A program made the translations under genes and the position numbers. 22,880 bases of DNA from Deinococcales bacterium (lineage in GTDB: Bacteria; Deinococcota; Deinococci; Deinococcales; JAAFIG01), in contig JANNVX010000111.1 in the NCBI GenBank assembly GCA_031414595.1, forward strand, positions 1 through 22,880, given 5' to 3'. The notes beneath the pieces were generated by a model. That model saw only the letters and a list, made by a program, of their open reading frames with translations. It had not been told where the DNA came from and did not search any database. Positions 10,478 to 22,409 of the stretch are shown piece by piece; position 1 is the first letter of the stretch; every line of letters starts with the position of its first letter.

Positions 10478-10521
10478 ATCCCATAACTCGAGCCAAATTT
10501 CACGGTATCATCCCAAGTCTT

Positions 10522-10653
10522 GTGGAAGGTCTTTTTATTGCTTCACAACTGGGGGAAATCTGTGCGCGGCTTCCAGCCCGTAACCTCGGTTGGGTATTTC
10601 CGAATGAAACCACTGCCGCGCTACTGCTCGAGGATTCAAACCATAAAGCGTAA
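10522..10653 (+). pseudogene. 5' fragment of an NFACT/Rqc2 (RqcH, FbpA-like) gene
   Basis: GTG-started 43-codon [46 protein letters not shown] matches my recollection of the Deinococcus NFACT N-terminus (MEGL..A..L..L...[19 protein letters not shown]). A -10-like TATCAT lies at 10506-10511. Below the ORF-track size cut-off. Confidence 0.7.
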
Positions 10654-10674
10654 AATCTGCTGCTCGAGGCAGGT

Positions 10675-11268
10675 TTACCTGAGTTTTGACAACGCCTTAC
10701 GAATTAAGCCCTCGGCGGTGTCATCCACTCCACTCTCGAGCAAATTTGCCACCACCGTTCGCACTTGGGCATCGCGGTAGCCCAAGGAAATCAGGGCTTC
10801 AACCGCATCCCTAAACGCCTCATTTTCTGATGGGGCTGGTCGCGGTGTGCCTTTGCCTACAGCTAAATGGGCTGGGAGTTTAGAACTTAGCTCGAGAATT
10901 AGGCGCTCGGCGGTTTTTTTACCTACGCCGCTTACACTGGCAAGTAATTTGGCATCTTCTTTCATGATTGCACTGGCAAGCACATTTGGGTTATAGGTCG
11001 AAAGTGCAGCCAAAGCAATTCTGGGACCAACGCCCGAAACCGTCATCAGGAGCTTAAAAATTTCCAGTGCATCGGCTTCATGGAAACCGTATAAACTCCA
11101 ACCATCCTCGCGGACGATTAGACTGGTCTCGAGGCGCACGGGTTGTCCGACTTTACAGCGTTCTAAACTGGGTCTGGGACAGGAAATCTCGAGTCCAAAA
11201 CCGCCAATGGCGATAATCGCACTGGAGTCTTTGACAGCAACCACCAAACCTTCTACAAAAGCAATCAT
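10675..11268 (-). CDS. ruvA: Holliday junction branch migration protein RuvA
   Basis: MIAFVEG, VREDGWSLYGF, VSGVGPRIALA, GVGKKTAERLILEL, ALISLGY, IRKAL. Confidence 0.98.
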   Translation of the reverse strand: MIAFVEGLVVAVKDSSAIIAIGGFGLEISCPRPSLERCKVGQPVRLETSLIVREDGWSLYGFHEADALEIFKLLMTVSGVGPRIALAALSTYNPNVLASAIMKEDAKLLASVSGVGKKTAERLILELSSKLPAHLAVGKGTPRPAPSENEAFRDAVEALISLGYRDAQVRTVVANLLESGVDDTAEGLIRKALSKLR

Positions 11269-11401
11269 TGCCTTGTATTGTAAAAGAAATTGTACTCGAG
11301 AAACGAGTTTGCTTTTTTAGGTTCAGGTTTTTCGTGAGGGAAAGAATTTATTGGGTTTTTTGTAGGTTTTGACCAGTTTGGCAGTAGAATTTGCGGACGA
11401 C

Positions 11402-11431
11402 TTGACAGCATTTATGTTATTAACGTATTCT
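11402..11431 (+). promoter_or_regulatory. Sigma-70-type promoter of the SWIM-AAA-VWA operon
   Basis: TTGACA (11402-11407), 18-nt spacer, TATTCT (11426-11431), 40 nt upstream of the GTG start. Confidence 0.7.
11412..11428. promoter_or_regulatory. RDRM (radiation/desiccation response motif; DdrO operator)
   Basis: 17-mer TTATGTTATTAACGTAT fits the quasi-palindromic TT(A/C)(T/C)G-N7-C(A/G)(T/G)AA motif with one terminal mismatch, and overlaps the spacer and -10. Confidence 0.8.
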
Positions 11432-11471
11432 TTTTGGCAGCCCTACAGCCAGACACCACAAAGGAAAATTC

Positions 11472-12782
11472 GTGACTCAACTGACCAGTACACAAATCCT
11501 GTCCTTAGCCCCCGATACCTCGAGTGCCAGCAGTGGTAAAGCGCTAAGCAACCCCAGCAAATGGAAAACCCTAGGCTCGAGCGATATGGCTATTTGGGGA
11601 GAATGCCAAGGCAGTGGCAAAGACCCCTACCGCACAGGGGTGGATTTATCCGATTACACCGCCAAATGCTCCTGTCCAAGCCGAAAATTTCCTTGTAAGC
11701 ATGGAATAGGTTTGATGCTGATTCACGCGAGTAAAACACTCGAGACAGCCACACCACCAGATTGGCTAAGCACATGGCTCGAGGGCAGACAAAAACGCGC
11801 CGAAGCCAAAACTGCCCCGCCCAAAGAACAAAGTTTAGAAGAAACCAAAAAGTCCGAAAAAGCCGCTATCAAGCGCTTGGAAGCTCGAGAAAAGAAAGTC
11901 GAACTTGGACTTGAAGAATTTGGCTTATGGTTGTCTGACCAAATCAAAAATGGAATTGCCAACGCCCCAAGCCAGCCTTACAGCTATTGGGAAACCGTGG
12001 CAGCACGGCTGATAGATGCCCAAGCCCCCGGACTCGCCCGAATGGTACGCGAATTGCCCACGGCTGCCTCGAGCGGCACAAATGCTTTACTCGAGGCACT
12101 GGCACGGCTGCATCTGATTGTCAGCGCTTACTCGAGACTCGAAACCTTATCGGCAAGTACCCAAGCCGATGTTCGCGCCGCCGTTGGCTTCACCCAAGAC
12201 AAAGCCGAATTGATGCAAAAAACTGTGCCTCGCAACAAATGGCAAAGTTTAGGGCAGATTATTGTCCAAGAAGATAATTTGCGGGTACGGCGAACTTACC
12301 TCGAGAACTTAGAAAACAAAGAATATGCCTTGCTGCTCGATTTTGCGGTGGGCAACCAACCGATGACTGGCGGTCTGCCGATAGGTGTGAATTTAGAAAC
12401 CGAACTGATTTACTACCCAAGTCACTTGCCCCTACGCGCCATTCTCAAAGACCCGCAAATTCTCGAGCCAGCCCAAACCCTGCGCGGTATCACCATCAAC
12501 CAAGCGCTTGAACAGTACACCAATGCCCTAAGTAAACTCCCGTGGCTCGAGCGATACCCAGTCACCCTAAGCAATGTTCAAGTGGTGACAGACGGTACGG
12601 TTTGGTACATTCAAGATGAGCATCACAGCCTAGCGATACAAACCCAAGACCACTGGCAGATGATGGCGTTAAGTGGCGGACATCCTGTACAAGTTTTTGG
12701 TGAGTATAACGGCACACACCTTGTTCCTTTAAGTATCGAAGTACAAAACACTATTTTTATGCTTGGAGGTAGCCATGAATGA
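11472..12782 (+). CDS. SWIM zinc-finger protein (DdrT/YehQ-like)
   Basis: WGECQGSGKDPY, CSCPSRKFPCKH (CxC...CxH), ARLIDAQAPGLA; SD AAGGA. Confidence 0.92.
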   Translation: MTQLTSTQILSLAPDTSSASSGKALSNPSKWKTLGSSDMAIWGECQGSGKDPYRTGVDLSDYTAKCSCPSRKFPCKHGIGLMLIHASKTLETATPPDWLSTWLEGRQKRAEAKTAPPKEQSLEETKKSEKAAIKRLEAREKKVELGLEEFGLWLSDQIKNGIANAPSQPYSYWETVAARLIDAQAPGLARMVRELPTAASSGTNALLEALARLHLIVSAYSRLETLSASTQADVRAAVGFTQDKAELMQKTVPRNKWQSLGQIIVQEDNLRVRRTYLENLENKEYALLLDFAVGNQPMTGGLPIGVNLETELIYYPSHLPLRAILKDPQILEPAQTLRGITINQALEQYTNALSKLPWLERYPVTLSNVQVVTDGTVWYIQDEHHSLAIQTQDHWQMMALSGGHPVQVFGEYNGTHLVPLSIEVQNTIFMLGGSHE

Positions 12783-14286
12783 CCTTCGCGCTCTAACTTC
12801 GAGTGCGCTTTTAGGCACGGAGCGCAGCCCGCTTGGGATACTCGAGAACCCGCACCTCGAAGAAGCCCGCCAATCGCTCGAGCCACACGGACAAGCCAAG
12901 CAGTTGCTCGGAACGGCAATATTGGCGTTTAACCTGACTCGAGCAGGAGCGCAAGCCAGTGGCAAAATACCAAGTCTTGCACCAGCCGCAGCAGATACTC
13001 GCCCGATTATTCCAGAAGCCGCCCAAGAGCGACTGCAACAACTTTTTGCTCAGCAAGCAGACTTGATTCCAGAGTGGCTCGAGCTTGCCAACCAAGCAGG
13101 GTTTCGTATGCCGCACAAAGATTTAATTGCCCTGCTCGAGTACGGGCGGCAACACACTGACCAACGCCAAAAAATCCTGCCTTTGCTTGACTCGAGGGGA
13201 CGTTGGTTAGCCCAGCAAAATCCGCAGTGGGCATGGGCAACGGGCGACACCAGCAGTTTAGAAACCGCGCTCGAGACTTGGGAAACGGGTTCAAAAGCGG
13301 CTCGGGTTTTGGCATTGCAAAGTATTCGCCAAGACAACCCCGACCAAGCCCGAACCTTACTCGAGAGCGTCTGGAAGAGCGAACCCGCCGATGAACGCAA
13401 AAGTTTCTTAATCCAACTACAAATTGGACTCTCTGAAGCTGATGAACCCTTTCTCGAGTCATGCCTAGATGACCGCAGCAAAGAAGTCCGTTCATTCGCC
13501 GCATTAACACTCTCTCGATTAAAAAGTAGTGCCTATAATTTGCGAATGGCAAATCGAGCCAAACAATTGCTCCAGAATGGCAAAAAAGGAATAGAAATTG
13601 TGTTACCTGAATGGACGAATGATTTATCTCGAGATGGAATCGAAAAAACCCCACCACATGGTATTGGCGAAAAAACCCATTGGTGGCAAAGCATCATAGG
13701 TCGTGCGCCAATTGAAATATGGTACTCACATTTACAATTGACTGCACTGGAAATCCTAAAACAAATACCAAAAATGTGGCGAAAGAATTTTATAGATTCA
13801 ATTCTATTATTTGGATTAAACGGTTACTGGGCAAATGCTCTACTTGAATACGACGCAAAAATGATTTCTGAAAACTCAGTGATGGCTACCCTGCCAATCG
13901 ATTCAAGGCAAAAATACATCCAAAAACATATTTTTTCAAAACCATTGCAAGAACAAATATATTGGACACATTGGATGTCAGACCCTTGGGACTTAAGTTT
14001 TAGTCAATCTGCACTTGAATGGATTTTATCTTCTGGAAAGCAAGTGCTGACAAGTAAGAAAAAACATTTTGGCAGCTCGTTTCATGATTTTAAGGTAAGG
14101 ATTCACCTGCAAGCGTTCCAACAATGGAAGCTAAAACCAGAGACACTTTCATTAGTCAAGCAATTGGAACAAGTTATTGCACAAGATAAGTATTCATATT
14201 CAGTCAAAGATTTTTACGAATACCTTCAAGACTTAATTACGACCCTCGAGACCCGCGCTGCAATGCGAAAGGAATTACAACCATGA
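12775..14286 (+). CDS. DUF5691-type helical-repeat protein (DdrU-like)
   Basis: ALLGTER, RGRWLAQQNPQWAWA, DEPFLESCLDDRSKEVR. Start taken as ATG 12775 after SD GGAGG, overlapping the SWIM stop. Confidence 0.82.
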   Translation: MNDLRALTSSALLGTERSPLGILENPHLEEARQSLEPHGQAKQLLGTAILAFNLTRAGAQASGKIPSLAPAAADTRPIIPEAAQERLQQLFAQQADLIPEWLELANQAGFRMPHKDLIALLEYGRQHTDQRQKILPLLDSRGRWLAQQNPQWAWATGDTSSLETALETWETGSKAARVLALQSIRQDNPDQARTLLESVWKSEPADERKSFLIQLQIGLSEADEPFLESCLDDRSKEVRSFAALTLSRLKSSAYNLRMANRAKQLLQNGKKGIEIVLPEWTNDLSRDGIEKTPPHGIGEKTHWWQSIIGRAPIEIWYSHLQLTALEILKQIPKMWRKNFIDSILLFGLNGYWANALLEYDAKMISENSVMATLPIDSRQKYIQKHIFSKPLQEQIYWTHWMSDPWDLSFSQSALEWILSSGKQVLTSKKKHFGSSFHDFKVRIHLQAFQQWKLKPETLSLVKQLEQVIAQDKYSYSVKDFYEYLQDLITTLETRAAMRKELQP

Positions 14287-15359
14287 GCCAAGAACTCCGC
14301 CAACACGCCGAACAAGAATTCGCTGTCGAACTCGAGGCTCTGAAAAAAGCCGATGATAAACCAAGACCGCCAAACTGGAAACTCAGCCCTTGGGCGGTGA
14401 TTCAATACCTGATGGGCGGTAAGGTCGGCAAACTCGAGATTAAGCCCAAATATATTGGCAATCAGCGCTTAATGGAAATTGCTGTTGCTACGCTTGCCAC
14501 TGACCGCGCTTTGTTGCTTTTGGGTGTTCCCGGCACTGCCAAAAGTTGGGTCTCGGAGCATTTGGCGGCAGCGATTAGCGGCGACAGCACATTACTCGTT
14601 CAAGGCACAGCCGGAACATCGGAGGAAGCGATTCGCTACGGCTGGAATTACGCTGAGCTTCTATCTAAAGGACCCAGCATCAAAGCGATTGTCGAAAGCC
14701 CGATTATTCGTGCCATGAAAACAGGGGCAATTGCACGGCTCGAGGAACTGACCCGCATTCCATCCGATGTGCAGGACGCACTGATAACGGTGTTGTCCGA
14801 AAAAACATTGCCCATCCCCGAACTAAACAGCGAAGTCCAAGCCCAAAAAGGCTTTAACATGATTGCCACCGCCAATAACAAAGACCGAGGGGTCAATGAA
14901 CTCTCGAGCGCCTTGAAGCGCCGTTTTAATACGGTTATTCTGCCTGTGCCAGACAATATGGACGAAGAAATTCGGATTGTCCAAACCCGAGTCGCTGACC
15001 TTGGACGCGCCCTCGAGATACCCGCCCAAGCCCCAGCGCTCGAGGAAATTAGGCGTGTGGTGCGGGTTTTTAGGGAACTGCGCGAGGGTAAAACACTGGA
15101 CGGCAAAACCAAGCTGAAAAGTCCAAGTGGCAGTTTAAGCACTGCCGAAGCAATCGGGGTGATTAACCAAGGGCTGTCTTTGGCAGCCCATTTTGGGGAT
15201 GGGGTGTTGCGGGCAAATGATGTTGCCTCGAGTTTGATTGGCGCAATTATCAAAGACCCGATTCAAGACCGTGTGGTGATGCTTGAGTACCTCGAGACCG
15301 TGGTCAAAGAACGTGATGGCTGGAAAGATGTCTACCGTGCTTGCCGTGACGTGGTGTGA
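14283..15359 (+). CDS. MoxR-clade AAA+ ATPase, YehL type (DdrV-like)
   Basis: LRQHAEQEF, Walker A GVPGTAKS, Walker B RLEE, ATANNKDRGVNELSSALKRRF; ATGA-coupled to the upstream gene. Confidence 0.93.
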   Translation: MSQELRQHAEQEFAVELEALKKADDKPRPPNWKLSPWAVIQYLMGGKVGKLEIKPKYIGNQRLMEIAVATLATDRALLLLGVPGTAKSWVSEHLAAAISGDSTLLVQGTAGTSEEAIRYGWNYAELLSKGPSIKAIVESPIIRAMKTGAIARLEELTRIPSDVQDALITVLSEKTLPIPELNSEVQAQKGFNMIATANNKDRGVNELSSALKRRFNTVILPVPDNMDEEIRIVQTRVADLGRALEIPAQAPALEEIRRVVRVFRELREGKTLDGKTKLKSPSGSLSTAEAIGVINQGLSLAAHFGDGVLRANDVASSLIGAIIKDPIQDRVVMLEYLETVVKERDGWKDVYRACRDVV

Positions 15360-15360
15360 A

Positions 15361-17592
15361 ATGAGCCTACATTTGTTTGGGATTCGGCATCATGGTGTTG
15401 GTGGGGCGCGTTCGTTAAAGCGGGCGCTGCATCTGCTCGAGCCAGATTGTGTTTTGGTCGAGGGTCCACCCGATGCCAACGACCTCCTGCCTTTACTAGC
15501 CGATGTTGGCATGACCCCACCTGTTGCGCTACTGCTCTATGCCAAAGACGACCCATCAAAAGCTGTCTATTACCCATTTGCTGCTTTCAGCCCCGAATTC
15601 CAAGCCATTTCCTATGCCTTAAAGCAAAAAATAACAGTTCGTTTCATGGATTTACCTCAAGCCCATCAGTTATCTGATGACCCTGACTGTAGAGGTGACG
15701 GAGCTTCAAGCGACGGGGGTTGCGCCCGTGCAGATGACGATGATGTATCCCAAGACCCCCTAGGCTGGTTAGCCAAAGCCGCAGGTTTTTCCGATGGTGA
15801 GCGCTACTGGGAATACCTTGTCGAACAACGCCAAAACGACCAAGACGTTTTCACTGCCATCCTCGAAGCCATGACCGCTCTACGTCTCGAGTCCAAAATT
15901 CTCGAGCCTCGAGAAGCTGGGCGCGAGGCATACATGCGTCAAACCATTCGCAAAGCCCAAAAAGACGGCTTCAAAAAAATAGCTGTAGTCTCTGGTGCGT
16001 GGCATTCACCCGTTTTGAACCCTGAAAATTTTGACCAAAAAAACGATGCCAAACTGCTCGAGGGTCTGCCCAAAACTGCCGTCTCGAGTACCTGGATTCC
16101 GTGGACATATGGGCGTTTGGCACGTTCAAGTGGGTATGGCGCAGGCATCACCAGTCCCGGTTGGTACGCGCACTTGTGGGAACTACAAGATTCGTCGTCG
16201 CGCAACGTCATCACCCATTGGCTGACCAAAGTAGCGCATCTGCTCCGAGCCGAAGATTTACCCGCCTCGAGTGCCAGCATCATCGAAGCGGTGCGTTTAG
16301 CCGAGGCACTAGCCGCCCTGCGTGGTTCACCGATGCCGGGCTTGGATGAAATGAACGAAGTTTCTCGGGCGCTTTTTGCCTGGGATTCTGACTTACCACT
16401 CGAGTTAATCAAAGAAAAACTAATTCTGGCAGAAACCCTTGGGGCTGTCCCCGCCTCCACGCCAACTGTACCGCTTGTGCGTGATTTGGAAGCTGAACAA
16501 AAACGTTTGCGCTTTAAGCCCGATGCGGTTGCTAAGAATGTGGAATTTGATTTACGAACCCCCAATGACTTAGAACGAAGTATGCTTTTGCACCGTTTGC
16601 GGCTGCTCGGTGTGCCGTGGGGCGAGGTGATTGGCAGTAGTGGCAAGGGGACATTCAAAGAGGCGTGGCGCGTTCAATGGCATCCAGAATTTGCGGTGCG
16701 GTTAATCGAAGCCGCGATGTTTGGTTCGAGTGTACTGGAAGCCGCCACCCAAAAAGTGCTGGAAATCTCGAGCCTGACCAGTCATTTACCAACCCTTACG
16801 GGCTTACTCGATGATGTGTTGCTATCGAACTTGCCCAATGCAGCGCAATTGGTTTTAACACGGCTTGAAGCGGCTGCGGCGCAAGATGCGGACATCAACC
16901 ACCTGATGATGGCAGTACCGCCTTTGGCTCGAGTACAACGTTACGGCAGTGTCCGTCAATTTGATTCGACCATGTTGCAAAGTGTGGTATCTGGTTTGGT
17001 AGTACGAATCTGTATTGGTTTACCGAACACTTGCGCCAGTTTATCGGATGAAGCGGCTGGAGACTTGTATCCAAGAATCCTTGAGCTACATGCCGCCATT
17101 GCCACCCTCGAGCAACCCGATTTACTAACAGAATGGCGCAAGGTGCTTGGGGTCTTAGCAGTTCAGCACGGACTACATGGCTTGATTGCGGGTCGTGCTG
17201 TGCGCTTGCTGCTCGAGGCGGGTGTCTATACCCCCGAGGACACCGCCAAACGTTTATCTTATGTGGCTGGTAGTGCCACCGACCCTAACGAAGTGGCGGC
17301 ATGGACAGATGGTTTCTTGCGTGGTTCAGGTTTGGTTTTGGTTCATGATGATGCTCTTTTTGGAGTGCTGGACTCGTGGGTACAACACCTCACGCCCGAG
17401 ACCTTTATTGCCATTCTGCCCCTGATGCGCCGTACCTTCTCGAGTTTTGAAGAGGGCGAGCGCCACGACATCGGACAGAAAGTCAAAGCCCCAAGGCAGC
17501 TAAGCACTTTTCACACTACCCAAGACATAGATGCCACCCGAGCCGAACAAGTCATCCCGTTAATCCATCAAATGCTAGGCATCCAACCGTAA
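15361..17592 (+). CDS. DUF5682/YehM-family protein (DdrW-like)
   Basis: LFGIRHHG, VLVEGP, YYPFAAFSPE, REAYMR, GAWH, WIPWTYGRL, SGYGAG. Start taken as ATG 15361, 1 nt after the AAA stop. Confidence 0.9.
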   Translation: MSLHLFGIRHHGVGGARSLKRALHLLEPDCVLVEGPPDANDLLPLLADVGMTPPVALLLYAKDDPSKAVYYPFAAFSPEFQAISYALKQKITVRFMDLPQAHQLSDDPDCRGDGASSDGGCARADDDDVSQDPLGWLAKAAGFSDGERYWEYLVEQRQNDQDVFTAILEAMTALRLESKILEPREAGREAYMRQTIRKAQKDGFKKIAVVSGAWHSPVLNPENFDQKNDAKLLEGLPKTAVSSTWIPWTYGRLARSSGYGAGITSPGWYAHLWELQDSSSRNVITHWLTKVAHLLRAEDLPASSASIIEAVRLAEALAALRGSPMPGLDEMNEVSRALFAWDSDLPLELIKEKLILAETLGAVPASTPTVPLVRDLEAEQKRLRFKPDAVAKNVEFDLRTPNDLERSMLLHRLRLLGVPWGEVIGSSGKGTFKEAWRVQWHPEFAVRLIEAAMFGSSVLEAATQKVLEISSLTSHLPTLTGLLDDVLLSNLPNAAQLVLTRLEAAAAQDADINHLMMAVPPLARVQRYGSVRQFDSTMLQSVVSGLVVRICIGLPNTCASLSDEAAGDLYPRILELHAAIATLEQPDLLTEWRKVLGVLAVQHGLHGLIAGRAVRLLLEAGVYTPEDTAKRLSYVAGSATDPNEVAAWTDGFLRGSGLVLVHDDALFGVLDSWVQHLTPETFIAILPLMRRTFSSFEEGERHDIGQKVKAPRQLSTFHTTQDIDATRAEQVIPLIHQMLGIQP

Positions 17593-17595
17593 ACC

Positions 17596-17623
17596 GTAGG
17601 GGCGAGGCATGCCTCGCCCCTAC
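17596..17623. repeat. GTAG-family REP, perfect 28-bp palindrome
   Basis: GTAGGGGCGAGGCA|TGCCTCGCCCCTAC immediately after the DUF5682 stop. Confidence 0.9.
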
Positions 17624-17650
17624 CACCATCCCACCAAAAAGGAGAACTAC

Positions 17651-18316
17651 ATGTCCCTAAAATCCCAAATCCCGCAATCATGGCAAACCGCCCTCGAGCC
17701 AGAATTCTCTAAACCCTACATTCCTAAACTCGAGGCGTTTCTCGAGGCAGAACGCAAAGCACATTCAGTCTTCCCCCCAGAATCAGAAGTCTTTTCTGCC
17801 CTCGAGTTCACTCCCTTTAATACTGTGCGGGTGCTGATTGTCGGACAAGACCCCTACCACGACGACAATCAGGCGCATGGCTTGGCGTTTTCGGTGCAGC
17901 GCGGTATGAAAATCCCACCGAGTTTGGTCAACATGTATAAAGAACTCGAGACAGATTTGGGCGTGCCACGAGCTAAACATGGTTTTCTCGAGTCGTGGGC
18001 GCGGCAAGGTGTGTTGATGCTCAATACCGTGCTGACGGTTCGGGCGCATGAAGCAGCTTCGCATAAGGGTAAAGGCTGGGAGAACCTGACCGACGCAATT
18101 ATTAAGGCTGTCAGTACCAAACCAGAACCTGTGGTCTTTGTCTTGTGGGGCGCTCATGCCCAGAAGAAACTCGAGTTGATTGATACCAAAAAGCACACAG
18201 TCATTCAAAGCGCCCATCCTTCGCCGCTCTCGGCGCGAAATGGTTTTTTTGGTTCTCAGCCATTTTCTAAAATCAATGCGGTTCTAAAAACCCCTATTGA
18301 CTGGAGTCTCGAGTGA
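17651..18316 (+). CDS. ung: Uracil-DNA glycosylase, family 1
   Basis: [39 protein letters not shown]. Start taken as ATG 17651 after SD AAGGAG. Confidence 0.98.
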
Positions 18317-19497
18317 GCCTTGAAACCGAACGCTTACGCCGTTGGCGTTTGCTGCTGGGTAGCGCGGCTGATAACTCTTGTGGCGCATGTGGTGCAGCCG
18401 ACCAGCGTATTGATCTTGCGCTCGAGTCTTTATACGGCGATGGCGACACAAAACCAATGTCGCCCGAAGATAAAGAAAAGAACCGCAACAATGTTGGTAA
18501 GGGCAAATCCCAACCCAAAGTCGCCCGTTGGCTTGGTGACATCCGTGAATTCTTCCCCAGCAGTGTGGTGCGGGTGATGCAGCGCGATGCTTTTGACCGC
18601 CTTGGCTTAAAACGAATGCTGCTCGAGCCAGAGATGATGGAAGCCGTCACCCCAGATGTACACATGGTCAGCACACTCTTGGCACTCAAAAACATCATGC
18701 CGCAAAAAGCCAAAGAAACAGCGCGGCTGATTGTACGAAAAGTGGTGGATGAACTCGAGAAAAAACTAGCTGAAAAAACCCGAGAGGCGGTGATTGGTAG
18801 CCTCAACCGTGCCATTCGTAATCGCCGCCCAAAGCACACCGAAATGGATTGGAACAGAACCATCAGGGCTAACCTTAAGCATTACCAACCCGATTATCAA
18901 AGCATTGTGCCAGAAATAAAAATTGGTTTTGGGCGTAAACGCTCGAGCCTACGCGATATTATTTTGTGTTTAGACCAAAGCGGTTCAATGGGTTCAAGTG
19001 TGGTTTATGCGGGTGTGTTTGGGGCAGTGCTTGCCAGCCTACCCGCCGTGCGAACACGGGTCGTAGTTTATGACACAAGTGTGGTGGATTTAACAGCAGA
19101 ACTCCACGACCCAGTAGATGTGCTTTTTGGCACACAACTTGGTGGTGGCAATGACACCCCAAAGGCACTTGATTACTGTGCGGGGTTGCTCGAGAAACCC
19201 GAGGACACCATTTTTATTTTAATTTCTGATTTGTACGAAGGCTCGGGCAGTGCTGCAATGCTCTCAAAACTCGAGGCGTTTATTGCGTCTGGCGTGACCG
19301 TGATTTCGCTGCTGGCGTTGTCTGACGATGGCAGACCCAGTTACGATGTCCAGAACGGAGCGGCGCTTGCCAAGATGGGCGTACCGGTCTTTGCCTGTAC
19401 TCCAGACCTTTTTCCAGACATGATGGCGGCGGCTATTTCGAGGCGTGATATTTTGCAATGGGCAGCCACCGAAGGAATTGTGACCACAAGAGCTTAA
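18313..19497 (+). CDS. VWA (CoxE-like) domain protein, YehP type (DdrX-like)
   Basis: [30 protein letters not shown]...T...D (ISDLYEG), ACTPD; GTG start overlaps the ung stop (GTGA). Confidence 0.92.
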
Positions 19498-20021
19498 TCT
19501 TGCCACTCGCTTAAACGCCGCAGGTCAGACCAGCCGTAGGTCACTTCACCAACACTGGAAGCTCCAACAGTCACTGGATGTAAACCTAAATCCTCTGCCC
19601 CCATGGCAATGTAGACCCGAGGGGTTGGATTACCACTGCGTAAGCGCACCAACATCGAATTAAGTCCGAGTGCGACTAAACCTTTTGCCACCGAAAGGAG
19701 CAATTGTTTACCCACACCTTGTCCTTGGTAACGTGGCATCACATATAAGGAGTACATTTCGGCTTCGATGGTTGAATGTCCGCCCCATTCAGGACCACCA
19801 GCCGCAAAACCAACCACTTCGCCGTCTTCTTCGGCAACGTAGGCAACCTCGTCGCCCCATTCTGCGCCTTCAAGAAAATGCTGCCAGCGTTGGTCGCCTC
19901 TTGGTTGTAAGGCATCAAAGGCAAAATCCGGTACAAGACTCGAGAACAAGGCTCTCCAGCATTCAAAATGCACTTGGGCGATGGCAGGAATGTCGTTTTT
20001 AGTGGCAGGTCGTATTTTCAT
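19494..20021 (-). CDS. GNAT-family N-acetyltransferase
   Basis: MKIRPATKNDIPAIAQVH, YVAEEDGEVVGF, LYVMPRYQGQGVGKQLL (acetyl-CoA motif). Start taken at ATG 20021. Confidence 0.92.
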   Translation of the reverse strand: MKIRPATKNDIPAIAQVHFECWRALFSSLVPDFAFDALQPRGDQRWQHFLEGAEWGDEVAYVAEEDGEVVGFAAGGPEWGGHSTIEAEMYSLYVMPRYQGQGVGKQLLLSVAKGLVALGLNSMLVRLRSGNPTPRVYIAMGAEDLGLHPVTVGASSVGEVTYGWSDLRRLSEWQD

Positions 20022-20088
20022 CGCTGGTTCTAGTCTAACCGATTTTATCTGGGCTTGCACAAGGAAATCAGAAAGGTATGCAGAATTA

Positions 20089-20122
20089 GGGTCGGATTAC
20101 TGGATAACTCGGGTCGGATTAC
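20089..20122. repeat. 12-bp direct repeat in the divergent intergenic region
   Basis: GGGTCGGATTAC at 20089-20100 and 20111-20122 (22-bp period). Confidence 0.8.
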
Positions 20123-20183
20123 GGCACAATGTCCTCTTGTGGCAAGGTAAGATAAGCCACATGAAACCGCGCAAGGTGACAAC

Positions 20184-20978
20184 TTGAAACTGGCAATTGC
20201 AGATTTGCACGGACGAGCCGACCTGCTCGAGGGTTTACTCGAGCGTGTGCCAGCCGACACCACTTTTGTTTTCTTGGGCGATGCGATAGACCGAGGGCAT
20301 CGTAACCGCGACACGATTCGTTTGCTGACCAAACTGGCGGATGAAGGACGCATGACTTTACTGCGTGGTAATCATGAAGCAATTGTTCTCGAGGTAGACG
20401 AATGCTTTGAGCGTTTTAAGCGCGAACCGACCGAGTTGCGGCGCGGGGACGCGCTGCTTTCAATGCAAAATTGGATTCAAAACGGTGGCGATACCGTGAT
20501 TATCGAATATGGCGGTTGGGACTCGGGTGGACAAGCCGATGCTTTTGGCGATTGGGGCTTACCACCAGAACTGATGACCTATGCCAGCCGCACCGAATAC
20601 ACCTACCGTCATGCAGGTGGCGAAAAAGGCGATATTTTGTGTGTCCATGCCGCCCCAAGCCAAGTCAAAGGCTACCGCAGCCCCGAAGACAGTATGGTTT
20701 GGGCGCGTCCAGAAGATGGTCCTTTTGCGTTGCCAGAAGGTGTTCTGCTCTCGGTGCATGGTCATACACCGGTTCATGCACCCACTCGGATTGGACAAAA
20801 TATTTTTATGGACTTAGGGGCAAAATGGACTGGACACCTTTGCACCCTCGACTTAGATACCCTAAAATTCACCACCTACAAAGGACTGGGTGAAGATACT
20901 TTAGAGAATCTACCTGTCTTTGAACCTGTGGCTGGAATTGAACCTGTGGTACTCGAGTTTGAGACAGTAGAGCTTTAA
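20184..20978 (+). CDS. Calcineurin-like metallophosphoesterase (PrpA/PrpB Ser/Thr phosphatase-like)
   Basis: ADLHG, GDAIDRG, RGNHE, CVHA, HGHTP, DLGA; TTG start after AAGGTGA. Confidence 0.92.
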   Translation: MKLAIADLHGRADLLEGLLERVPADTTFVFLGDAIDRGHRNRDTIRLLTKLADEGRMTLLRGNHEAIVLEVDECFERFKREPTELRRGDALLSMQNWIQNGGDTVIIEYGGWDSGGQADAFGDWGLPPELMTYASRTEYTYRHAGGEKGDILCVHAAPSQVKGYRSPEDSMVWARPEDGPFALPEGVLLSVHGHTPVHAPTRIGQNIFMDLGAKWTGHLCTLDLDTLKFTTYKGLGEDTLENLPVFEPVAGIEPVVLEFETVEL

Positions 20979-22261
20979 TGGGTTTGCACCAGTATTTCAA
21001 GTTCCTTCCATGCCGCTCGAGCGCTGGGTAAATCATCACGGTGACGCACTAAAAACTCTTGAACTCGAGCCATGCTGAGGCTGTCTTCAGAAAGGCGTTC
21101 AGCCAGTGCGGTGGCATCTGGAATACCCGGATAGAAGCGCTCGAGCATCTTGGCAATTTGTTGCCGTGTGGCATGACCCACAAACAAATGGACATCGCAA
21201 CGCCCCGGACGCACCAAGGCAGGGTCGAGTTTCTCGAGATGATTGGTGGTCATAAAGACCATTCGACCTTGTTGCGCTGTTACGCCATCTAAGGCGTTTA
21301 ATAAGCCATTAAAAGAGAGTTTGGTTTCAGCATCTTTTTTACGACCGACAAAAATCGCATCTATATCCTCGAGCAGAATTAAACTGCCTTCGGGTGCATC
21401 GGTCAGTAAATTGGTCAGGCTTTCATCGGTCAAAATTCCACTGGCTAGATTTAGCACACAAACACTTTTATGCAGCACACCTGCCAATGCCGTAATCAAA
21501 CTCGATTTGCCGTTGCCCGGAGGACCGTAGAGCAAGTAGCCACGCCGCCAAGGAATGCCCATGTCGGTGTACCACTGCTCAGACTCGAGGAAACGCTTAG
21601 TATCAGCACAAACCCGTTCAAATAATCCACCAGCATAAACCAAACTTTTGGGGTCTCGAGGCGGCACACGCTGCATCACCCGCCAATCATCCCAACGCGG
21701 CGCAAGAATTTCGACTCTGGGTTCTTCGGGTTTATGGACAGTTTTATAAGCCGCACCGACCAAGCGCTCTAAAGAATCACGGTTGGTGACCAAAGTACGC
21801 ACCGTTAAAGTCTCATGGAAACCAATCAGCAGACTGTTGTTTTGTTGGCGTTCCCGAGAAGCACTAAACCAAAATGTCCGATTTTCAAATTGTACTTTGA
21901 ATGTCCCGTCCACGGGTGCAAAGACCCCACGCGGCGCGTTGTCACGGGTATCCACAGCAAAACCTGCTTCGCCACTTCGTTGTGTCACCAGCGCCAAGTC
22001 ACGCATTCTCGAGCGCACGGGTTGGGTGGTTAGCCATGCTCTAAACCATTCAAAAGCATCGTCTCGAGAGTCCACTTGAACAGTCACGATAATGCGTTCC
22101 CAAATATAATCCCAGATTTGCTTGGGTAAATGCCGCAAATAGGCGATTGCCCCACCTGCAATCGCAAGGGTTAAACCACCAGTCACGACTTGGTTGGATT
22201 GCAAAGTCTTTTGCAACTCGAGCCAAACTTGGTTTATATCTGGATGTAAAAAATCAATCAT
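20975..22261 (-). CDS. BCS1-like membrane-anchored AAA+ ATPase (BCS1_N plus AAA)
   Basis: One N-terminal TM segment, DDAFEWFRAWL, GIPWRRGYLLYGPPGNGKSS, LLEDIDA, GLLNALDGV, MTTNHLEKLDPALVRPGRCD. Start taken as ATG 22261 after SD AAGGA. Confidence 0.9.
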   Translation of the reverse strand: MIDFLHPDINQVWLELQKTLQSNQVVTGGLTLAIAGGAIAYLRHLPKQIWDYIWERIIVTVQVDSRDDAFEWFRAWLTTQPVRSRMRDLALVTQRSGEAGFAVDTRDNAPRGVFAPVDGTFKVQFENRTFWFSASRERQQNNSLLIGFHETLTVRTLVTNRDSLERLVGAAYKTVHKPEEPRVEILAPRWDDWRVMQRVPPRDPKSLVYAGGLFERVCADTKRFLESEQWYTDMGIPWRRGYLLYGPPGNGKSSLITALAGVLHKSVCVLNLASGILTDESLTNLLTDAPEGSLILLEDIDAIFVGRKKDAETKLSFNGLLNALDGVTAQQGRMVFMTTNHLEKLDPALVRPGRCDVHLFVGHATRQQIAKMLERFYPGIPDATALAERLSEDSLSMARVQEFLVRHRDDLPSARAAWKELEILVQTH

Positions 22262-22375
22262 AAAGTCCTTAACTGTCAAACGCCAGACAGTAGCACAGCC
22301 CAAGACTGGCTGTGTAACAGACAATACGCAACGCAGAGGACTCAGTGCATCGGGGTTTTGGCGTAAGCCATTACA

Positions 22376-22409
22376 GCAAGACCTATGCGCCATCTGCAAG
22401 ACCTATGCG
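22376..22409. repeat. 14-bp direct repeat upstream of the BCS1-like gene
   Basis: GCAAGACCTATGCG at 22376-22389 and 22396-22409 (20-bp period). Confidence 0.85.

Follow-up and report, generated by a model that had tools for sequence, protein, structure and literature searches.

The window analysed here is a stretch of 22,880 nucleotides (nt), positions 1 to 22,880 of contig JANNVX010000111.1 in the assembly GCA_031414595.1 of an uncultured Deinococcales bacterium (4.49 Mb in 120 contigs, 47% GC), for which the closest public records are metagenome-assembled Deinococcales genomes. Between positions 11472 and 19497 of its + strand lie six co-oriented genes whose products match, in order, the Pfam families SWIM, DUF5691, AAA_5 (of the MoxR type), DUF5682, UDG and VWA_CoxE. 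Judged by gene families and gene order, the five core genes make up the ddrTUVWX operon already described for Deinococcus, and what differs is the uracil-DNA glycosylase gene (ung) embedded between ddrW and ddrX. This ung is most likely (with a probability of about 0.6 in our estimate) a passenger in a permissive operon junction, gaining co-expression and, in the host's genus, control through DdrO and the radiation/desiccation response motif (RDRM). Such a reading is favoured because the cargo at the junctions around ddrW is heterogeneous, the ung itself is an unaltered housekeeping gene, and the operon elsewhere lacks it. The features of the locus are:

11402-11431, + strand: sigma-70-like promoter, TTGACA - 18 nt - TATTCT (10/12 in the promoter scan)
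11412-11428, no strand assigned: RDRM-like 17-bp operator TTATGTTATTAACGTAT, presumed DdrO site, between -35 and -10 (11/12 half-site positions)
11472-12782, + strand: ddrT, SWIM zinc-finger protein, 436 aa, GTG start (Pfam SWIM 25.9 bits, cut-off 19.6)
12775-14286, + strand: ddrU, DUF5691 protein, corrected start ATG 12775 (Pfam DUF5691 E 9e-109)
14283-15359, + strand: ddrV, MoxR-type AAA+ ATPase, 358 aa (Pfam AAA_5 E 2e-37)
15361-17592, + strand: ddrW, DUF5682 protein, 743 aa, corrected start ATG 15361 (Pfam DUF5682 E 6e-259)
17596-17623, + strand: perfect palindrome resembling repetitive extragenic palindromic (REP) elements, in the ddrW-ung spacer (fold -28.3 kcal/mol, z -5.4)
17651-18316, + strand: ung, family-1 uracil-DNA glycosylase, 221 aa, corrected start ATG 17651 (NCBIfam ung equivalogs)
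18313-19497, + strand: ddrX, VWA (CoxE-like) protein, 394 aa, GTG start (Pfam VWA_CoxE E 1.4e-43)

The ddrT stop and the ddrU start overlap in the junction sequence ATGAATGA, the true ddrU start being ATG 12775 (with GGAGG upstream) and TTG 12763 being wrong, while ddrU and ddrV overlap as ATGA at 14283-14286. The ddrV stop occupies 15357-15359 and ddrW begins at ATG 15361, where its opening MSLHLFGIRHHG matches the family consensus and thereby rules out the listed start at TTG 15283; a 1-nt gap thus replaces a 77-nt overlap. For ung, the true start is ATG 17651, preceded by AAAGGAG and common to all relatives, and ATG 17609 was rejected on that ground, so that a spacer of 58 nt separates ddrW from ung. 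The first-pass annotation had described six co-oriented genes behind one RDRM-bearing promoter, with a complete family-1 ung between the DUF5682 and VWA genes, and the Pfam, NCBIfam and promoter scans confirm this; the overlap of the ung stop with the VWA start as GTGA was likewise found, at 18313-18316. Its description of the genes as mostly overlapping or abutting holds for most junctions, with the reservation that three starts have been corrected and that the hairpin-bearing 58-nt spacer before ung had been overlooked. The CxC...CxH columns of the ddrT SWIM domain (C66, C68, C75 and H77) are invariant in 19 sequences, as is the metal ion-dependent adhesion site (MIDAS) of ddrX, D221-Q-S223-G-S225 (DxSxS), in 30 VWA sequences. 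The locus therefore encodes a MoxR AAA+/VWA pair, that is, an AAA_5 ATPase with a neighbouring VWA protein carrying the MIDAS DxSxS motif.

A five-gene SWIM-led operon of Deinococcus deserti (Deide_18730-18690) with an RDRM upstream is described as responding to radiation with a more than 10-fold, IrrE-dependent induction, its function being given as unknown in these accounts (PMC5552922, PMC6300522, PMC8072749). The paper on D. taeanensis names the operon ddrTUVWX and describes an extra open reading frame (ORF) between ddrV and ddrW (PMC9510100). As annotated, the plasmid copy of that species (p_TS293_3) runs SWIM, DUF5691, AAA, a 78-aa ORF, DUF5682 and VWA, and the window has the same gene order at 43-72% identity (DUF5682 43% over 100% of the query, MoxR 72%, VWA 59%). 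The SWIM-led five-gene cluster that the first-pass annotation had placed in the IrrE/DdrO regulon of D. deserti is hence real, and the genes of the window match its D. taeanensis copy. Both Deinococcus operons share with the window the five families, their order, an upstream RDRM and the Deinococcales lineage; in contrast to them, the window has an ung between ddrW and ddrX, preceded by a REP-like hairpin, and its host belongs to an uncultured family and has 47% GC.

The order SWIM-DUF5691-MoxR-DUF5682-VWA also occurs in Pseudonocardiaceae, Chloroflexota, Cyanobacteria, Gemmatimonadota, Planctomycetota and Bacteroidota, and all five genes are present in 56 of the 74 loci outside the close relatives. 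The proposed kinship with E. coli yehL/M/P/Q agrees with the annotation of these genes (MoxR, a 759-aa protein, VWA and SWIM, respectively) and with a match of the DUF5682 model in E. coli. In the K-12 cluster yehI-yehK-yehL-yehM-yehP-yehQ, the MoxR, 759-aa and VWA genes stand in the same order, overlapping or abutting, and a SWIM gene belongs to the cluster; unlike the window, the SWIM gene comes last, a DUF4132 protein is encoded upstream, and DUF5691, ung and an RDRM or DdrO system are all lacking. A literature search found no paper naming DUF5682 or DUF5691, and for yehL, yehP and yehQ only a genome announcement naming two of the three; for a connection with supercoiling in Streptomyces it returned nothing of relevance. 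The public sequencing runs that match the locus are DNA runs only, and four of these may stem from the source sample.

The product of ung is, by motif and model scores, a family-1 uracil-DNA glycosylase. It exceeds the cut-offs of five NCBIfam ung equivalog models (for example, NF003589 at 318.6 bits against 223 and TIGR00628 at 274.9 against 185.75), and its best solved relative is the Ung of D. radiodurans (DR_0689; 2BOO), matched over the full length at E 1.6e-81. The catalytic motifs of family-1 UNG, GQDPYH and HPSPLS, are intact where the protein aligns with 2BOO, and all 17 sequences compared keep both unchanged. No added domain was found in the UNG, and no residue is fixed in the 11 embedded copies while being absent from five stand-alone copies. 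The gene is under strong purifying selection (ratio of non-synonymous to synonymous substitution rates, dN/dS, 0.08). The host genome holds two genes of the UDG superfamily, namely this ung, its only family-1 copy, and a family-4 UDG elsewhere; exactly one ung match was obtained in 18 of the 19 genomes of the host's GTDB family. Joining of ung to another damage-related gene has a precedent in this order, in the PhrB-Ung fusions of Deinococcus (PMC6300522), from which the ung of the window differs in being a separate gene within an operon. The RDR (radiation/desiccation response) regulon members given for Deinococcus in two reviewed accounts do not include ung (PMC6300522, PMC8072749), and the literature search found nothing linking ung with the RDRM beyond one review that treats them separately.

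The position of ung was read in 57 of the 60 Deinococcales genomes matching the DUF5682 model, among 201 Deinococcales genomes sampled. Within the host's family (genera g1-g5, where g1 is the host's genus and g4 the second genus with an embedded ung), ung directly follows DUF5682 in all seven g1 genomes (G075 and G090 being read from adjacent coordinates) and in five of the six g4 genomes, the sixth having the two genes on separate short contigs. This arrangement was found in none of the three genomes of g2 and g5 and in none of the 41 genomes of other Deinococcales families; similarly, none of the 67 loci from other phyla that hold both DUF5682 and VWA genes has an ung between them, and in one Thiothrix locus an ung stands 1.5 kb downstream in convergent orientation. 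In the neighbourhood survey of DUF5682 clusters that had been suggested at the outset, ung is embedded in 12 genomes from two genera of one uncultured Deinococcales family, and is not confined to a single genome, while the 44 other Deinococcales genomes and the 67 loci of other phyla do not have it there. In genera g2, g3 and g5, the ung orthologue (71-76% identical) is found away from the operon, in three different settings, each lacking an RDRM-like site upstream of the gene. Where one genome (G025) has its ung, the host genome lacks one, and the two flanking genes are neighbours there, about 680 nt apart. This interval of the host genome (G000 C88:173465-174147), at the site of ung in the sister genus g2, contains an opposite-strand ORF.

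The tree of VWA proteins joins g1 and g4 in a clade (support 100/99) with g2 and g5 outside, and because of this grouping a single ung insertion in the ancestor of g1 and g4 would be the simplest reading, one that draws mainly on this gene tree. A quick tree of DUF5682 gave a trichotomy, and the UNG tree left the genera as a polytomy, which makes it uninformative on one versus two insertions. GlmS was dropped as a species marker, its tree placing a Deinococcus-like genus inside the family and g5 far away. Internal stops occur in the DUF5682 frames of one congener (G015, locus L123) and of a Saprospiraceae locus (L086), and the ung of the former contains a single TAA; either the copies are decaying or the assemblies contain errors.

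Gene neighbourhoods across Deinococcales show cargo recurring at both junctions beside ddrW. The MoxR-DUF5682 junction (slot A) holds Y1_Tnp-like ORFs, SUKH proteins (four genomes), DUF1963, leucine-rich repeat (LRR), Schlafen AlbA_2 and LRV/HEAT proteins, with 14 of the 20 scanned ORFs giving no Pfam match. The DUF5682-VWA junction (slot B) holds ung, at times together with DUF4240, a 219-aa unmatched protein or a MazF pair; elsewhere it carries the MazF pair alone (G025), a NADAR protein passing the model for YbiA-type N-glycosidases (G107), GGDEF-EAL proteins (two genomes), polysaccharide-deacetylase-like proteins (three scanned ORFs), a PIN and MraZ-like pair or, in a Bacteroidota locus, a DUF4132 protein. 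Here 13 of the 20 scanned ORFs were without a match. Among 35 further Deinococcales loci, more than 250 nt are present in slot B in 15 and in slot A in 21. Gaps of 300-670 nt between DUF5682 and VWA in Pseudonocardiaceae were left out of the cargo count (two sampled ORFs gave no Pfam match), and they may be N-terminal extensions of the VWA protein because that of D. taeanensis is annotated as longer. The only extra gene reported for ddrTUVWX in the published account is the 78-aa ORF between ddrV and ddrW of D. taeanensis (PMC9510100).

A Y1_Tnp ORF of the IS200-like kind (after the insertion sequence, IS, IS200) comes after the MoxR gene in four genera, which belong to three families (L121:6190-6954, L126:5378-5935, L138:6285-6830 and L191:2370-3023). 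These slot-A ORFs are 37-47% identical to one another and 26-35% identical to two paralogues in the host genome, and from these values the ORF seems to be a long-standing accessory of the operon and not the product of repeated IS insertions.

At the ung-ddrX junction, the 4-nt overlap is present in the host, in G005, in G015 and in four g4 genomes, while small ORFs intervene in the others. Genus g4 has a split operon, with SWIM-DUF5691-MoxR followed by a Y1_Tnp-like ORF on one contig and DUF480-DUF5682-ung-VWA on another. The palindrome of the ddrW-ung spacer (17596-17623) is perfect over its 28 nt and is not followed by a run of T. Its 22-nt core GGGGCGAGGCATGCCTCGCCCC has 39 copies in the genome at up to three mismatches, often flanked by CCGTA / TACGG; 25 of these copies lie outside ORFs of at least 150 aa, and 15 lie within 40 nt after a stop. 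The family thus consists of many near-identical and mostly extragenic palindromes, as is typical of the REP type, and the host genome also contains Y1_Tnp-like ORFs. All g1 genomes carry palindromes of differing sequence at this junction, and two g4 genomes have no hairpin there, only about 10 nt separating the ddrW stop from the ung start. Since the spacer palindrome belongs to a dispersed family of 39 copies and is absent from two g4 genomes, it would be a REP-like element that arrived after ung and not a dedicated terminator.

With TTGACA at 11402 and TATTCT at 11431, the promoter is the top-scoring + strand site within 10500-20500. Operators were scored against TTAYGT / ACRTAA, presumably the half-site consensus of the RDRM, and this motif alone is not enriched genome-wide (27 sites of at least 11/12 against 40 and 17 for two scrambled controls); a first, looser pattern gave 315 matches against 925 for its control and was discarded. 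The operator at 11412-11428 is nevertheless credible because of its position, its conservation in congeners and the presence of like sites before ddrB, gyrA, ssb and recQ. Conservation in three congeners (G010, G005 and G015) extends from the -35 hexamer through the Shine-Dalgarno sequence, with DNA further upstream having diverged, and an identical operator or a 1-nt variant stands at -55 to -60 of their SWIM genes. Related RDRM-like sites precede the SWIM gene in genus g5, in genus g33 of family f3 and in one Deinococcus-like genome, while the best upstream scores in 10 loci from other phyla are 7-8/12, with a single exception at 11. A scan of 17 ORFs beside 12 intergenic sites of 11/12 returned two canonical members of the regulon, ddrB and gyrA, whose sites lie 49 and 50 nt upstream, respectively. 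A second set of 13 out of 42 filtered 10/12 sites was chosen by plausibility, and is to that extent biased; among its 15 ORFs are ssb and the genes of a recQ-type helicase, an AlkZ-like glycosylase and a RecN/SMC-type ATPase. Altogether, RDRM-like sites lie 9-79 nt upstream of ddrB, gyrA, ssb and recQ in the host genome, and we infer that DdrO binds at 11412-11428.

Other parts of such a regulon can be suggested for this lineage. An RDRM-like site lies 10 nt before the AlkZ-like DNA glycosylase gene (G000 C63:168-1246) and another 20 nt before the RecN/SMC-type ATPase gene (C104:1904-3520), and both may be lineage-specific members. Two RDRM-like sites separate a 135-aa HTH_3 gene from a divergent 117-aa ORF without a Pfam match (G000 C39:38580-39407), a layout like that at ddrO/ddrQ, which makes the two genes candidates for the ddrO and ddrQ of the lineage. 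One of the three M78 peptidases matched in the host genome could be IrrE. On the + strand between 13963 and ung (3.7 kb), the consensus scan did not find a sigma-70-like promoter. No convincing RDRM was found before either half-operon of genus g4; a conserved RDRM-like site, TTATGCTNTAAACAGAA, lies just 3' of its VWA gene (L127:11245, L129:10304 and L133:2038).

The core proteins differ widely in their rates of change. Within the genus (the window, L011, L012, L015 and L016), DdrU is 48-60% identical as against 72-99% for its neighbours (MoxR 95-99%, VWA 93-98%), with a dN/dS of 0.26-0.37, and its divergence is concentrated in residues 300-500 (20-40% identical). As these alignments indicate, the C-terminal half of DdrU is hypervariable and evolves far faster than the neighbouring proteins. 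In the closest pair, dS is 0.90 for DdrU against 0.20-0.41 for the neighbours, a hint of allele exchange. Among solved structures, DdrV is related to the AAA modules of Midasin and to NorQ. Pairs of the NorQ/NorD type carry out ATP-driven remodelling of a client and likewise combine an AAA_5 ATPase with a VWA/MIDAS protein; SWIM, DUF5691 and DUF5682 are unrelated to nitric-oxide reductase, however, so the analogy is mechanistic only.

For DdrW, the first ~270 residues align with three TraB_PrgY_gumN proteins (hhalign E 4.2e-4, probability 34%), and four pairs of motifs coincide in the alignment (GIRHH-GTAH, VEGPPD-IELD, REAxM-ERDxYM and GAWH-GAGH), and the DUF5682 model weakly matches a TraB gene in one genome (G011). 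In the AlphaFold model (mean predicted local distance difference test score, pLDDT, 82), the N-terminal domain resembles ChaN 2g5g (Z 8.1, root-mean-square deviation 3.9 over 150 residues) and HopBA1 5t09 (Z 7.5), which are middling scores, and residues 470-736 resemble helical repeat proteins. A Foldseek search with the whole model gave weak helical-repeat matches only (E at least 0.01), none of the Pfam models of the TraB/ChaN/erythromycin-esterase superfamily reaches E 5 on any of 32 DUF5682 members, and searches of PDB sequences with SWIM, DUF5691 and DUF5682 profiles returned nothing below E 0.01. DdrW may thus combine an N-terminal TraB/ChaN-like alpha/beta domain with a C-terminal alpha-solenoid, and its reading as a hydrolase is a lead drawn from the predicted model. 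The motif pairs and the ChaN and HopBA1 matches may point to kinship of its N-terminal part with the TraB/PrgY/GumN-ChaN-erythromycin-esterase (TIKI) superfamily; in contrast to that superfamily, DdrW adds a helical solenoid of ~270 residues, has no Pfam match to it and obtains middling scores.

Under the passenger reading, ung would have been an ordinary single-copy housekeeping gene until one insertion in the common ancestor of the two genera, at a junction which, like the other ddrW junction, appears to tolerate and often acquire foreign genes in Deinococcales. It would now share the transcript of the operon, its translation being coupled to that of ddrX, and in genus g1 uracil excision would become inducible through the cleavage of DdrO by IrrE after DNA damage. 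Housekeeping uracil repair could be covered by basal read-through together with the family-4 UDG encoded elsewhere, and ung may have been kept because its co-expression is harmless or useful. The REP-like hairpin probably sets the ratio of upstream to downstream message, and termination at it is unlikely. The MoxR-VWA machine probably does not include UNG as a structural component; a working model of this machine, built on the NorQ/NorD analogy and on family knowledge, would have DdrT and DdrU choose a target at which the MoxR-VWA motor remodels or activates the hydrolase-like DdrW.

Several observations weigh against a mere passenger. The 4-nt ung-ddrX overlap is kept in 7 of the 11 genomes in which both genes are complete, across two genera whose DdrW proteins are ~55% identical, and ung stayed between ddrW and ddrX through the operon split in g4; as far as these genomes show, such persistence of a coupled ung-ddrX pair exceeds what a neutral passenger needs. 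With no RDRM before the g4 half-operons, a gain of damage control cannot explain the retention of ung in that genus. Another slot-B cargo, the NADAR/YbiA-type protein of G107, is also an N-glycosidase. The single insertion hangs on one gene tree, those of UNG and DUF5682 leaving the genera unresolved, and co-transcription is something that we infer, since the consensus scan could miss a weak promoter inside ddrW. The conserved coupling, its survival of the split and the second N-glycosidase in the slot, found in another family, would suit a six-gene complex in which UNG is the client or partner, bound by the VWA protein and loaded, activated or recycled by MoxR on damaged DNA found by the SWIM protein. 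That MoxR-VWA pairs act on client proteins (as does the relative NorQ) and that the operon is damage-induced in Deinococcus (PMC5552922) agree with this. We consider it unlikely all the same: the five-gene operon does without ung in the 41 genomes of other Deinococcales families and in the 67 loci of other phyla, the enzyme is an unaltered housekeeping orthologue with neither an added domain nor shared derived residues, and the same slot holds MazEF and PIN toxin-antitoxin pairs, GGDEF-EAL, deacetylase-like and unmatched genes. UNG is, moreover, generally known as a well-studied monomer that requires no chaperone. Quite improbable, too, is an ung that is embedded but transcribed independently, from a constitutive promoter in the ddrW 3' end or the spacer, with the hairpin ending most transcripts from the RDRM promoter. 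The very stable hairpin (-28.3 kcal/mol) does stand directly 3' of the ddrW stop, a sole ung is expected to need steady expression, and in g4 ddrW-ung-ddrX lacks both the upstream genes and any detectable RDRM. Nevertheless, the 3.7 kb before ung hold no promoter-like + strand site, the hairpin lacks a T-run, is one of 39 REP-like copies and is missing in two g4 genomes, and the core gene ddrX, downstream of ung, must be expressed with ddrT-W.

The alternatives that turn on conflict concern the operon as a whole. It could be a damage-triggered system against phages or mobile elements, with exchangeable sensor and effector slots and with UNG directed at uracil-containing invader DNA. Such a system would account for the hypervariable C-terminal half of DdrU with its raised dN/dS and, in the closest pair, raised dS, and for the SUKH, LRR, DUF1963, Schlafen-AlbA_2 and LRV/HEAT proteins of slot A as well as the toxins, NADAR protein and UNG of slot B. 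The slot-B NADAR protein weakly matches an anti-phage NADAR model, homologues occur on 35 plasmid records, and vWA-MoxR ternary conflict systems have been described (PMC7159879). However, the PADLOC defence models gave no match to the six operon proteins at E 0.01, the bpMoxR model of those ternary systems reaches 25.6 bits against a cut-off of 27, and only one phage record carries a homologue. The core genes are strongly purified by selection and syntenic across phyla, ung is the cell's own single-copy repair gene with vertical inheritance, and toxin-antitoxin pairs enter many permissive sites, all of which makes this explanation highly doubtful. A broader version, to which we give similarly slender odds, is a modular damage-induced surveillance system in which the ddrW junctions are true accessory slots and UNG is a recruited effector or client in place of a passenger. 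There, the choice of target would fall to DdrT and the hypervariable half of DdrU, and activation of the TraB-like DdrW to the MoxR-VWA motor, and the slot genes would supply sensors (SUKH, LRR, HEAT) and effectors (UNG, NADAR-type N-glycosidase, MazF, PIN), the embedded UNG acting on base-modified or uracil-containing DNA. The DNA-damage-processing or anti-uracil-phage complex that the first-pass annotation had proposed finds no backing here, given an unaltered single-copy orthologue, unrelated slot cargo, a second genus with embedded ung (g4) that lacks the RDRM, and the absence of PADLOC matches among the six proteins.

The ddrTUVWX operon is among the most strongly radiation-induced operons of Deinococcus and is found in many phyla, in part even in E. 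coli as yehLMPQ. The locus offers new handles on it: a well-understood repair enzyme kept in the operon, translationally coupled, over the lifetime of two genera; recurrent cargo sites at both ddrW junctions; and a DdrU that evolves far faster than its neighbours. As a passenger, ung would illustrate how insertion into an operon can bring a housekeeping repair gene under a stress regulon; as a partner, UNG would be the first candidate client of the ddrTUVWX machine.

Flanking the operon are ruvA (10675-11268, - strand), which is divergent from it with the RDRM 144 nt from the ruvA start, and a downstream GNAT gene convergent on the ddrX stop. Neither gene lies beside the operon in any other locus examined, including three congeners with 3-4 kb of upstream DNA; since these adjacencies are not conserved, they carry no weight, and the divergent ruvA was dropped as a clue to function. 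Further downstream, a BCS1-like AAA ATPase gene (20975-22399, - strand) encodes BCS1_N, AAA and lid domains and weakly matches the PADLOC IetA models (E 7e-10); a metallophosphoesterase gene (20184-20978) adjoins it. Near the other end of the window, glmS (172-2016, - strand) is preceded by a glmS ribozyme at 2062-2260 on the same strand (Rfam RF00234, 44.9 bits; gathering score 37).

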